A DNA stretch of 62,992 bases, the filler included, from Octopus bimaculoides (taxonomy: Eukaryota): NCBI RefSeq assembly GCF_001194135.2. It is 7 parts of 7 records of this genome, joined end to end, with 100 filler letters (N's around TTAATTAATTAA, not from the genome) between each part and the next. Parts side by side here need not be neighbours in the genome. Positions count along the whole stretch, not along the records: positions 1 to 15,353 come from NC_068995.1; positions 15,454 to 32,947 come from NC_068983.1; positions 33,048 to 36,106 come from NC_068991.1; positions 36,207 to 46,274 come from NC_068990.1; positions 46,375 to 53,423 come from NC_068989.1; 2 more parts are not named here. One strand, given 5' to 3'. The notes beneath the pieces are model-generated. The model did not search any database. It was not told the origin of the DNA and was given only the letters and a program-made list of their open reading frames with translations. A program made the position numbers and the translations under genes. This document shows positions 13,320 to 51,135 of the stretch, piece by piece. Every line of letters starts with the position of its first letter. Positions within the stretch are counted from its first letter, which is position 1.

Positions 13320-13446
13320 GTACTTAAATGATAAACTTCTGGAGAGTTTTACAGATTTTTACAGTTCCAGTGATGGATTGGATCTGCAGTCTTCGAATTA
13401 GGTTTCTCCTTTCTGGTCCTGAGAAGCCCAATTTCTCAAGATTGAT
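13320..13446 (-). mobile_element. Family D R4/Dong-like copy, short
   Basis: Reverse complement matches 50340-50460 (LEKLGFSGPERRNLIRRLQIQSITGTVKICKTLQKFII); 5' flank is (CATA)n on the element strand. Confidence 0.75.
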
Positions 13447-13825
13447 ATGTACGTATGTATGTATGTATGTATGTATGTATGTATGTATGTTTGTGTGTCT
13501 GTCTGTCAGTCTGTCTATCTATATGTGTGTCCGTTTGCATAAGTGTGTTCTTAGAAATACAAATATATGAATAGTTGTACTGCCTTAACAACAAACACAT
13601 GACACCAACACAAAAATTATTATTAATTTAAACATATATAAACATGTACCCCAGCACAGGTACACACATACACACAAATATAAACACAAACATACATGTA
13701 TATACGTGTGTGCATATACATACATATACACATACATAGAGTGCATACATATATATACATATATACATATATATATATATATATTTATATATATATGTAT
13801 ACATATATATATATGTACACACACA

Positions 13826-13863
<38 letters not shown>

Positions 13864-14687
13864 AGCATATTACATAATTGTGTGTACGTGACTGTGTATA
13901 TATCAGTGAGTTTAATATTGTGTGTTTAAATAGAAGTTCAAGAGAATTCCTGGCGATTTCAAAGGCGGATTAAATTATTAAATAATCACCATCGGTGAAT
14001 TTTCGAGAAAATGAGTATACACACGTAACTCTTAGAAGAATATTCCAGCGTGTATAATGTGCGTATACATAGGGAATCTATCTAATTACTTCAATTATTA
14101 AGGGACTTTCATATAAACTATTAATTAATATATTTTCTCCTCGCCTACACACATTCGCACGTGCTCACGTTCTGCGGTTAAGTATAGTGATATTGTATTT
14201 AAGATCATACGCAGATATATACATGCGTAGATGCATTCACACAAACATATATGCGTGTATACATTTCTACACCATTATTCATGCATACTCACATTGGTGA
14301 TTAGATATATACCTACATGCATATAATGAGGTATGTATATACACACATACACTTGTATATCCAAACATGCACACATATAAACACACACATACTCACGTCA
14401 CTCACTCTCTCTCTCTCTCTGTCTTTTATATATGCATATAGAAACATATATATATAGACACATATATGTACGTATTCATATATTTTTTTTTTTCTACTCG
14501 CGGCACAAGGCCCGAAATATTGGGGGAGGGGCCAGTACGCATGTGGCACACAATTTATCCCACCCCGAAGGATGAAAGGCAAAGTCGACCTCGGTGGAAT
14601 TTGAACTCAGAACATAATGAAATACCGCTAAGCAGTTCGCTCGGCGTGCTAACGTTTCTGCCAGGTATCTGCATGTATGTATGTATG

Positions 14688-14735
<48 letters not shown>

Positions 14736-15353
14736 CACACATACACACACACACACACACATACACACACATACACACACACACTTATTCAGGCACACAC
14801 ACACACCCACACACACACATATAAATATATATTTATACTTACATGCATATACAGAAATAGATAGATAGACCTATAATGTTTAGGGCTATATGTCAGTGCG
14901 CTGGCGTATATGTCATGAAACAATAGACGAAATGTGTTGAGGGGTGACTGACAAGAATGATGCTGACTCCACTCTTACACCATATAGTTTTGGCGGCAAT
15001 GTAAGGTGTTTTTCCTGAAAATTATCTGCTGATTTTTTTGACAAATTTATGTATTTATTTCTCGTCTTATTCACTTATTTAATTTCGACTGATATAATTA
15101 ACCTAGATGGAGAAAAGAAGACCAAATGACATGAGAGTTTACACTCACCCACCTTGACAAAGTGCAGAGATAGTTTGAAGGATGTGTGGGCAGGAAAGAA
15201 ACAGTAAAGTTACCGCTACAACAAAAGCAACAAGAAGAATAATATCGTTTTCGACATGAACACTGTCATCAACGCCATAAGCAGAGGACAGCAAACTATA
15301 CGTCGACAAGTGTAAGACATAAACATGGATAAACGCATGTATATATATATATA

Positions 15354-15453
15354 NNNNNNNNNNNNNNNNNNNNNNNNNNNNNNNNNNNNNNNNNNNNTTA
15401 ATTAATTAANNNNNNNNNNNNNNNNNNNNNNNNNNNNNNNNNNNNNNNNNNNN
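15354..15453. other. Artificial assembly spacer N44-TTAATTAATTAA-N44
   Basis: Exactly 100 nt with an all-frame stop 12-mer. The same 12-mer occurs in identical spacers at 32992, 36151, 46319, 53468 and 58010. Confidence 0.95.
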
Positions 15454-16274
15454 GCGAATGTATGCATATGGGTGTGTTTATACGTAAATGTATTTATGCG
15501 TGTAGGATGTTATTCAATTGTGCGCATTTTGTAGCCTATTATACACGTGTGATGGTGTTTATGTCTGTTGATGTTTGTATGCGTATTTCTATTTTTCCAA
15601 GAGGAAATACAAGAATATTTTCCTGTCTATGTGTGTATATATTCGTATAATAATGTATATAATGTTTTGTATGACATTTGTATTTATATAACTACGACGA
15701 ATACATGAATATATGCGGGTATATTTTTGTGTTTATGTACATGTGTTTATATATACATATATATAAATTATATATATATACATATCTCTCTCTCTATATA
15801 TATATATGTGTATATATGTTTCTGGGAATGTATGTTTATATGCTGGTCTGTGTGTGTGTGTGCGTGTGTGTGTGTATAAGAGTGTTTAGATGTGTTAACC
15901 CGATGTCAACCAGTGCAGTGTTGCTATGATTCATTGGCAGCTGGTAAGGATAACATGGCGATTCTCAGGATAGTTTTCATGTGTGTGCGTGTGTGCGTGC
16001 GTGTGAATGTGAGGTATATATNNNNNNNNNNAGAGAGAGGGAACGAAAGGTGTGAAAGAATTCCTGACAGAGAAAAGTGATGAGAATTCAAACGATGATC
16101 GATGATGTTGGTGATGGTGCTGATGATGAGAATGGTGATGATCCTTCTTATATTCGTCTCAAAGTTGAATTATACCACATTTATATTTTTCACTCTTTCT
16201 CTATTTCACTCATCATATATGCACATCTATACATATATACACATATGCATACATGTATATGTTTGTATGTACAT

Positions 16275-16442
16275 ATCTATCTATCTATCTATCTATCTAT
16301 CTAGCTATCTATCTATCTATCTATCTATCTATCCATCCATCCATCCATCCATCTATCTATCTATCTATCTATCCATCTATCTATCCATCCATCCATCTAT
16401 CCATCCATCCATCCATCCATCCATCCATCCATCCATCCATCC

Positions 16443-16490
<48 letters not shown>

Positions 16491-16527
16491 GTCTCTATCC
16501 ATCTGTATATATATATANNNNNNNNNN

Positions 16528-16567
<40 letters not shown>

Positions 16568-16570
16568 GTC
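16275..16570. repeat. (TCTA)n/(TCCA)n compound microsatellite
   Basis: Direct reading. Confidence 0.95.
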
Positions 16571-48731: not shown

Positions 48732-48990
48732 TTAGAGCAACGGACTCGCGGTCGAGGGATCGTAGGTTCGAATCTCAGACCGGATGATGTGTGTATTTAT
48801 GAGCAAAACACCTAAGATCCACGCGGTTCCTTTGCTTTCCTCTTGGGTAACATCAGTGGCGTGGAGAGGGGAGAGGCTGGTATGCATGGCTGACTGCTGG
48901 TCTTCCATAAACAACCTTGCCCGGACTTGTGCCTCGGAGGCTAACTTTCTAGGTGCAATCTAATGGTCACTCCTGATCGAAAGAGGTCTT
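48732..48990 (+). mobile_element. SINE with a family-C-like head and a different body/tail
   Basis: First ~100 nt match the family C head; the remainder (AACAACCTTGCCCGGACTTGTGCCTCGGAGG...GGTGCAATC) does not. Confidence 0.65.
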
Positions 48991-48998
48991 TACTCTTT

Positions 48999-49036
<38 letters not shown>

Positions 49037-49287
49037 TACATGCACTCCACGACATAATCATATACATGCACCCAGACATCAAAGGTATTCTTCCTGTTTG
49101 AAGTAATTTAACATTTTACACATCTTAATGATTCTTTTTCCACCAAGAAACACGACAGTTAAATGACTATCAGTAAAATATCTGTAGTTTTGCTTTGGCA
49201 GAGAAGCTGAGAGCAGTGAAAATCTTTATATTTACAGTGCTAGGGGAATGACTTTCACTTTTCCTGGGGTGGATTTTGTGTAATATA

Positions 49288-49440
49288 CAGGGTAATTCAA
49301 ACATAAAGAGCAGATTTAAAATTTATTTTTAAAACAAACGGTAAGAGTCACAAACACATTCTTGATAGGAGAAGGTTTAAAGTTTATAACTGAACATGAT
49401 CAATTGAATTAAGCCTTAGATAAAATAATATTTTAATTTA
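49288..49440 (+). mobile_element. One-ended mariner-like fragment
   Basis: TA|CAGGGTAATTCAAA start resembles mariner TIRs; no partner TIR seen. Confidence 0.3.
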
Positions 49441-49605
49441 CCCCCTCCCCCAAAATTACTGGCCTTGTGCCAAAATTTGAAATCAGTGTTAACTCATTAT
49501 TTTACAGGAGGTTCAGTTATGAAAAAAGAAAACGTGCAATACTCATTTATTTTAAACAAAAAAAATTAAAAGCTACCTCATTTTTGATATTTTCAGTGTT
49601 ATAAT

Positions 49606-49690
49606 AATACATTTATCATAACTATGAATACATTTATCATAACTATAAATATATTTATCATAACTATAAAAATACTTTTATCGTAACTTT
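49606..49690. repeat. 21-bp tandem minisatellite, about 4 units
   Basis: Unit AATACATTTATCATAACTAT(G/A). Confidence 0.85.
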
Positions 49691-50179
49691 TCATTTTTTT
49701 TATTCATTTTTTTTTTTTTATATAAAAATGGATGAGCATTGTACGTGTTGTCTGTTTTCATAACTGCATATACCTACTTTTGCACTGCCTGGTGTAGAAA
49801 TAGCTCTTACTATTTGCTCATCATTTTCACTATTTAGTTGTTATTTGCTGTTTAGCCATTATGTTTGATCGAGTGGAAGAAAAAAATAACTGTTCCGTAA
49901 TTTTATGAAGTACTTACGAATATAGGCCACAAACTATATTGGGCCTGTCATTTATGACATCGATTTTTCTTTTTTGTTTGTTTGTTTGTTTGTTTGCGTT
50001 TTTTTTTGTTTTTGTTTTTTTGTGTTTTTTTGCAATACCAGTATTCCACCGCTATTTCGAAACCTGTGTTCGACTCTAGTACATACATAAATACATACAT
50101 ACATAAATACATACATACATACATACATACATGCATACACCGTAAAAATCTGTAAATCTGCACATATACATACGTACAT

Positions 50180-50512
50180 TGCCCAGCGGATGTTAACATA
50201 AAGCTGAAGGTCAGTGAAATAGTGAACACCTATGCTGAACTATTGAGAAATCTGCAGTTACTCTATCCAGATTACAAGTTCAGGTTTATACCTGTAATTA
50301 TTGGGGAACTGAGATATGTAACACACTGCCTAAATACCAATCATGAGAAATTAGGCTTCTCAAAACCAGAAAGGAGAAAGCTGATTCGAAGACTACAGAT
50401 CTAATCCATCACTGGAACTGTAAAAATCTGTAAAACTTTCCAGAAGTTTACCATTTAAGTATATATGAACATGTCTAGATATGCATGAGAACACATACAA
50501 ATCTGCACATAC
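50180..50512 (+). mobile_element. Family D R4/Dong-like copy
   Basis: PADVNIKLKVSE..NTYAELLRNLQLLYPDYKFRFIPVIIGELRYVTHCL..EKLGFSKPERRKLIRRLQI; (CATA)n on both sides. Confidence 0.8.
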
Positions 50513-50579
50513 GTACATACATACATACATACATATTATATCATATTATATTAGTTCTTTCGTGGTTGCCGACGATAAC

Positions 50580-50905
50580 CGAGGGCATCACATGGAGAAG
50601 ATGGGTCACGGTGTGTCCAAACTGTGGCCAATCAGTCCAATGCATGCTCGGAAGGCATCAGTGGTCAGCAGGGACTGAAGGTAAGGAGTTGGCACTGGAC
50701 TTGCACGGTTTGCGTTTTCTTTGTGCCACTACAATCCCGCTCTGTTCGTAGGAAGTGGCACCTCTTGTGGCGCAGCTTCGCTCGGCAGGGTGGTCTTGCG
50801 CTTGGCCTCCTGGGCGTTAGGAATGATCTCGAAGCTCCCTAGTGAGGATTTGAGTGTTTCCTTGAAGCGTTTTTTTTTTCTATCCTCTTTGCATGCGCTT
50901 GCCTT
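50580..50905 (-). mobile_element. RTE-clade LINE 3' fragment
   Basis: GKRMQRG*KKKRFKETLKSSLGSFEI ... FRACIGLIGHSLDT resembles the GKR.QGGQKKRFKDTLK ... RIGLISHxRTH end of RTE ORFs. Confidence 0.7.
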
Positions 50906-51135
50906 CCACCAGTTCGTAAATACCTTAATAGAATGCAAACATGATGGACCAGACATGGTGATTTGGGAACAGAGAAGAGAAGAGAAACTTCTCTGAAGAG
51001 AATTAGTTACCTTTTGCGGGTGTCAACATAAAGCTAAAGATCAGTGAAAAAAAAAACACCTGCACTAAACTATTGAGAAATTTACAGCTACTCCACTCGG
51101 ATTACCCATTCAGATTCGTACCAGTACCAATTTTG
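50905..51135 (+). mobile_element. Family D R4/Dong-like copy, more 5' part including the RLE PD motif
   Basis: Frameshifted CKHDGPDMVIWEQR..E.S.P..GVNIKLKISEKK.T..LLRNLQLL..DY.FRFVPV; overlaps the copy at 50180. Confidence 0.65.

Follow-up and report, generated by a model that had tools for sequence, protein, structure and literature searches.

The window analysed here, a stretch of 62,992 nucleotides (nt) of Octopus bimaculoides DNA joined from seven parts, contains fragments of a retrotransposon of about 4 kb that has a single open reading frame (ORF) and a restriction-like endonuclease (RLE), and whose copies adjoin (CATA)n microsatellites in one orientation. The fragments are spread over three separate stretches of the window, which has joints at 15354, 32948, 36107 and 46275. 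A sequence-only reading had described them as six pieces of one R4/Dong-like element, and inspection of the sequence recovered all six and every quoted junction at the positions given. The assignment to one element did not hold. Four fragments belong to a subfamily A, one belongs to a subfamily B and one is an older stray, and we dropped the single-element reading in favour of two subfamilies plus the diverged piece at 50916-51125. The four A fragments (13309-13446, 18827-19243, 26580-26737 and 50180-50532) show 83-89% identity to A copies. The features are as follows (UTR, untranslated region; TRF, Tandem Repeats Finder).

13309..13446, minus strand: subfamily A fragment whose 5' truncation falls in the RLE-coding end and whose 3' UTR is mostly lost
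13447..13496, minus strand: (CATA)n array at the 5' junction of the 13309-13446 fragment (sequence, TRF)
18760..18826, plus strand: compound microsatellite (CATC)n(CATA)n adjoining the 5' end of the 18827-19243 copy (sequence, TRF)
18827..19243, plus strand: subfamily A copy with the RLE end, a 3' UTR with a short internal CATA tract, and the intact terminus AATAATGA|CATAC
26569..26579, minus strand: CATACATACAT, the 3' flank of the A stub
26580..26737, minus strand: subfamily A 3'-UTR stub that starts within the internal CATA tract, terminus intact (84-89% to A copies)
26745..26816, minus strand: subfamily B 3' end of 72 nt with the terminus GATTGATAA|CATACG, within the CATA tract on the upstream side of the A stub (94-97% to B copies)
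26817..26845, minus strand: (CATA)n/CATG array at the 5' junction of the B 3' end 26745-26816
50080..50178, plus strand: (CATA)n array, then a short A remnant with an internal deletion, which ends in its own CATA tract (TRF; two pieces of 15 and 25 nt match A)
50180..50532, plus strand: piece of subfamily A that runs from the RLE motif CPADVN to a point within the internal CATA tract and lacks the terminus (83-88% to A copies; translation)
50916..51125, plus strand: older diverged relative over the RLE region (69-76% to both A and B)

The terminus that two copies had been said to share proved to be a near-match, the two differing by one A (AATAAAACTG vs AATAAACTG). Four independent 5' junctions remain in the window and all of them adjoin CATA-type repeats; the stub at 26580 is not an independent junction because it starts inside the internal CATA tract of A. 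Part of the 5' flank at 50180 (50142-50178) is what remains of the internal CATA tract of a different A copy.

The R4/Dong-like architecture proposed earlier was supported, with a single ORF that encodes an N-terminal helical domain, a reverse transcriptase (RT), a CCHC knuckle and a C-terminal RLE. Walking upstream of the fragments yielded one A copy of full length (L061, about 4.0 kb), which is interrupted by stops and frameshifts. All octopus copies examined are broken, and intact relatives encode about 1,150 amino acids. A natural B open frame matched RVT_1 (E=1e-10), and locus L183 carries the motifs CRLC..HIISSC and NRPDIV..VVEISCP, corresponding to the CCHC knuckle and a C-terminal PD-(D/E)xK-type endonuclease. 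A Pfam scan of the octopus fragments and five full-length relatives revealed no family of the apurinic/apyrimidinic endonuclease (APE) type, the endonuclease motif being that of the C-terminal RLE. Across copies the 3' end is fixed and the 5' truncation variable. Median identity amounts to 84% between A copies (59 pairs), 95% between B copies (15 pairs) and 74% between A and B (62 pairs); A is the old subfamily and B the young one. In the 2.34 Gb of genome searched, the exact 3'-terminal 30-mer of A occurs at least 407 times and the 27-mer of B at least 778 times; as these counts are lower bounds, we infer that copies number in the thousands. The 3' UTR of B frequently contains a tandem duplication of about 85 nt (L182, L218, L221, L223, L231, L235, L250). 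Besides, the minus strand of L193 holds a 291-residue open frame with a cysteine-rich motif that is unrelated to the element and possibly comes from a DNA transposon.

For residues 1-70, structure prediction gave a confident three-helix domain. Its top structural matches included the ISWI nucleosome-recognition module (Z 5.8, root-mean-square deviation 2.1, 69 residues aligned), Sap1, GT-1, the CHD1 DNA-binding domain and DNAJC2 SANT, all with Z < 8; a Foldseek search with the same model returned no match. In the N-terminal columns of alignment A1, where the octopus row covers part of the region, no C2H2 or CCHC pattern was seen by eye. A SANT/Myb-like N-terminus has been described for R4/Dong elements and argued to be the specificity module of Dong (PMC7998251; here and below, papers are cited from excerpts of their text). 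The predicted three-helix domain is likely to serve as the specificity module of the octopus element, too. An HDV (hepatitis delta virus)-like ribozyme has been shown at the 5' end of Dong and R4 (PMC3774820). Among 13 Rfam matches at E<=5 in four loci with A 5' ends no ribozyme family was found, these copies being old and the models general Rfam ones. In four relatives of the element (L331, L332, L333, L334; first 150 bases) the array is followed directly by a short, GC-rich stretch with GGA(C/T)GTG at its end, and octopus A has GGCGTG at a similar position; this stretch is possibly a structured RNA leader.

Junctions were sampled by element sequence only, blind to the flanks. The A sample comprised the first 70 of the 407 places, from which three duplicates were dropped and 69 termini used, and the B sample 70 of the first 72 of the 778 places. 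CATAC forms the first five bases past the terminus in 37/69 A and 62/70 B ends, and a CATA 8-mer lies within 24 nt in 48/69 and 65/70, respectively. Genome-wide, 589 of the 778 B ends run on as TAA|CATACATA, with TAACATACATA as the exact continuation after the B word. Two termini (L093 and L094; C1, 57.81 Mb) lie on opposite strands 2.8 kb apart with identical flanks and represent an inverted duplication or an assembly artefact.

At the 5' side we left out ends that start in the 3' UTR (28 A, 29 B), since such stubs were not counted as 5' junctions, as well as ends at a gap or edge (0 A, 11 B) and those with no profile hit (2 A, 1 B). An exact sense CATA 8-mer adjoins 26 of the 39 informative A truncation points and 27 of the 29 B points, and the antisense 8-mer adjoins 0/39 and 1/29. 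The background, estimated from 20,000 random draws each in the window and in the loci, was 1.5% of 24-nt windows for the exact one-strand 8-mer, so that the enrichment in the genome-wide samples is highly significant (binomial p < 1e-37). As a control we took 30 loci of APE-type long interspersed nuclear elements (LINEs), of which a hand count left 19 with a scorable upstream boundary, after 1 without a partner and 10 at gaps or edges had been set aside. The sense 8-mer was present at 1/19 and the antisense at 0/19 of these (Fisher p 1e-5 against A, 5e-10 against B). Full-length A 5' ends likewise come after CATA-type repeats (L061, L193, L321, L323). A script resolved 26 of the 29 B junctions. 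In 18 of these the element and its array share 0-3 nt, in seven other bases lie between them or the boundary was mis-called, and one is without an array. Array lengths (median 41.5 nt at 5' ends vs 31.5 nt at 3' ends) did not differ clearly (p=0.10, n=26). The strand-specific preference for (CATA)n is thus real and strong. The fixed-orientation target had been proposed from the window fragments; in the larger samples the 5' flanks are enriched, the orientation is fixed, and CATA is found beyond the 3' ends, so that none of the outcomes named beforehand as refuting the proposal occurred.

A joint at the 3' end alone cannot separate a tail from a target, and the CATA could be made by the element itself, as a 3' tail together with repeats that slippage or jumping of the template adds at the 5' joint, at sites of weak specificity. 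RTE LINEs have been reported as microsatellite generators (PMC2887409), and across 34 copies the CATA tract within the A 3' UTR measures anywhere between 13 and 123 nt, so these tracts grow in place. Nevertheless, we regard this explanation as improbable. Five of 73 B termini are flanked on either side by collinear A sequence (L172 from an A-selected search; L206, L224, L263 and L270 from the flank-blind set), and all five interrupt A's own 3'-UTR CATA tract, which makes up about 10% of A bases (5/5 by chance, p about 1e-5). The target therefore predates the insertion in these cases. Moreover, L206 has no 5' array, and insertion therefore need not build one. The arrays are frequently embedded in compound microsatellites, with (TAGA)n(CATA)n and (CATC)n(CATA)n as examples, and the natural B copies examined have no CATA array in the 3' UTR that could act as a copying source. 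A search of 180 insertions for empty sites within the same genome, in repeats not belonging to subfamily A, produced no clean case. At seven loci (L037, L049, L063, L097, L157, L172, L181) copies are stacked head-to-tail with just CATA arrays between them.

The target could also be broader and, like that of Waldo, comprise (ACAY)n or purine-pyrimidine repeats, with CATA dominating through its abundance. Some A copies do adjoin (CA)n, CATG or CGTA variants (L004, L019, L081, L214). Past the B terminus, however, T occupies position 3 in 69/70 ends and position 7 in 68/70, though (CA)n arrays are common in the window, and we give this possibility slightly less credence still. Unspecific insertion, with the pattern left by survival bias or by later microsatellite recombination in a CATA-rich genome, is scarcely credible and already contradicted: although nine of the 14 perfect (CATA)4+ arrays in the window lie away from any element and many copies are rearranged, the phase and strand of the 3' joint are fixed in those 589 of 778 B ends, antisense arrays are near-absent, the APE-LINE control gave 1/19 and the youngest subfamily yields the strongest signal.

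We are therefore confident, short of certainty, that the R4/Dong-like copies sit in (CATA)n in one orientation, most likely because their own protein nicks pre-existing arrays and priming occurs there; that the element cuts CATA repeats itself is likely. By analogy with R2 and R4 biology, the N-terminal SANT/Myb-like domain and the RLE would read the repeat and the protein would bind its own RNA (PMC5678591). The strand reading TATG would then be nicked and used for target-primed reverse transcription (TPRT), and the truncated 5' end of the cDNA would be joined to the upstream array with an overlap of 0-3 nt. In old copies the CATA tract in the 3' UTR of subfamily A expands, and it receives later insertions. 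Subfamily A may spread its own target, a feedback that may help to explain the many CATA arrays of this genome.

Several observations weigh against this interpretation. The relative at 50916-51125 has no CATA flank, as had been said of this exception before. At the 5' side, 13 of 39 A ends lack an exact 8-mer and 9 of these also a one-mismatch 8-mer, and 2/29 B ends lack the exact one; the cleaner signal of the younger subfamily B, on the other hand, speaks for the interpretation, being what one would expect if the exceptions arose by later decay. One B copy (L208) has just 'CA' at the 3' joint and no 3' array, and the 3' CATA might in part be carried by the RNA. The control boundaries, taken from an all-versus-all BLAST, are less finely defined than those of the test set. 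The evidence for a pre-existing target consists of nested copies within one genome. Finally, the SANT/Myb assignment depends on weak Z scores (best 5.8), and the metagenome relatives described below are single contigs.

Relatives were taken as the best 80 of 482 loci from a metagenome scan; a scan with a single protein gave no match. The two best ORFs among the nearest relatives share 45-52% identity with other clade members. Two relatives have (CATA)n at both ends (L331, L332), one has (CTTA)n at both ends (L333), three have (CTTA)n at one end (L334, L336, L337), and for L335 no flanking repeat was found. A FastTree phylogeny of 95 rows (63 loci with ORFs of at least 690 residues, 28 database proteins and 4 natural octopus fragments), in which the octopus rows fill less than half of the columns, placed the octopus rows and these seven loci in a 39-row clade (support 100, stem 0.67) apart from the TAA-flanked elements. 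The 56 rows outside it comprise 27 with (AAT)n, 5 with (ATT)n, 5 with other repeats and 19 with none, and 0/56 bear a CATA or CTTA label. An IQ-TREE analysis of a hand-picked 27-row subset agreed, with one change between target classes. Both trees are without an outgroup and without named R4, Dong, Hero, NeSL or R2 references, and the CATA-flanked rows need not be one group within the clade; the nearest other group is that of the TAA-flanked elements. These are 26-34% like a clade member, and R2 chains are far weaker matches. The proposal of a cephalopod R4/Dong lineage on (CATA)n stands as regards the R4/Dong-like architecture. Its restriction to cephalopods is too narrow because distant metagenome relatives carry CATA or CTTA flanks, and we rejected a cephalopod-only trait. 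C(A/T)TA specificity in place of TAA is likely to be a trait of the wider clade. With some reserve, we lean towards the octopus elements being the tip of an undescribed, widespread R4/Dong branch that switched from TAA to C(A/T)TA and in which close relatives differ by a single base of the target (CATA vs CTTA). Elsewhere in the tree, L357, L362, L374, L386 and L388 form a subclade with (ATT)n flanks on the sense strand, opposite in orientation to the (AAT)n of most others, and L397 of the same subclade ends in (TTC)n. L338 and L339 adjoin (AAAT)n, and L349 and L398 are followed by (CT)n, which suggests further target variants.

The LINE groups that have expanded in cephalopods include Dong-R4, for which 1,129 recently active insertions are listed in O. 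vulgaris (PMC13282606). A strict microsatellite target predicts that insertions avoid coding sequence and accumulate in nested clusters, and that assemblies from short reads are interrupted at element ends; 11/70 B 5' ends lie at a gap or locus edge. Target change in RLE elements becomes testable by comparison in a clade whose members are flanked by TAA, CATA or CTTA, and if our interpretation is true the CATA and CTTA relatives are a natural series for mapping target choice by the Myb-like domain and the RLE. The window also holds young interspersed repeats, 91-96% alike, with several copies and adjoining simple repeats (29457-29985, 30684-31100, 54594-54779, 56437-56693, 57162-57363), which are probably short interspersed nuclear elements. 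A 440-nt repeat pair, 82% alike (20878-21318 and 60932-61372), has stops in the one frame translated.

Dong-R4 elements are abundant in cephalopods (PMC13282606, PMC8967140, PMC10294476), and an O. bimaculoides Dong consensus with a full ORF and no sign of current activity exists (PMC9115989). The LINE/Dong-R4 families of these four papers were matched to the present element by class and length; the mean active insertion in O. vulgaris is about 4.2 kb (4,732,901 bp / 1,129; PMC13282606) vs about 4.0 kb for full-length A. The catalogued families are very likely the ones described here. In the excerpts of PMC9115989, PMC8967140, PMC10294476 and PMC13282606 no target sequence is given for octopus Dong-R4, and in that of PMC13282606 the word 'target' does not occur. 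In the literature searched, no RLE element is described as targeting CATA or CTTA, with Repbase, Dfam, Fell et al. 2025 and supplements outside its scope and able to hold such a description. As far as this literature goes, octopus Dong-R4 families are already catalogued, and what is new is the CATA target and its sharing with a wider clade.

Known microsatellite targets are ACAY (Waldo), AC, TC, TTC and TAA (Dong) (PMC3812793), TG for Togen, and those of some Hero families (PMC4640811). The ACAY target of WaldoAg1, WaldoAg2 and WaldoFs1 overlaps with ours, as ACAT is a rotation of CATA (PMC3812793), whereas the octopus elements are specific for T at the Y position. The likeness is convergent because the endonuclease classes differ (APE in Waldo, RLE here), and the convergence suggested earlier extends to the target sequence and no further. 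R2 (Bm, Tg; PDB 8gh6, 9dou, 9nl2, 9nl3) resembles a clade member at E about 1e-28, confined to the RT region, and would share the TPRT mechanism; unlike the octopus element, it targets 28S rDNA (ribosomal DNA) and has N-terminal zinc fingers. R4/Dong elements insert into rDNA or microsatellites, with TAA as the target in most insects, molluscs and cnidarians (PMC7998251). Dong of Bombyx mori, DongAg, DongBg and the ostracod Dong resemble the octopus element in their single ORF with RT and RLE and in an N-terminus without zinc fingers (PMC7998251, PMC3812793), and the SANT/Myb-like N-terminus of Dong may have a counterpart in the octopus clade, likened to it at weak Z. Dong, too, inserts into a microsatellite in fixed orientation. 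However, its target is (TAA)n, which defines Dong sensu stricto, whereas the octopus junctions are CATA and the octopus element falls into a clade separate from the TAA-flanked elements.

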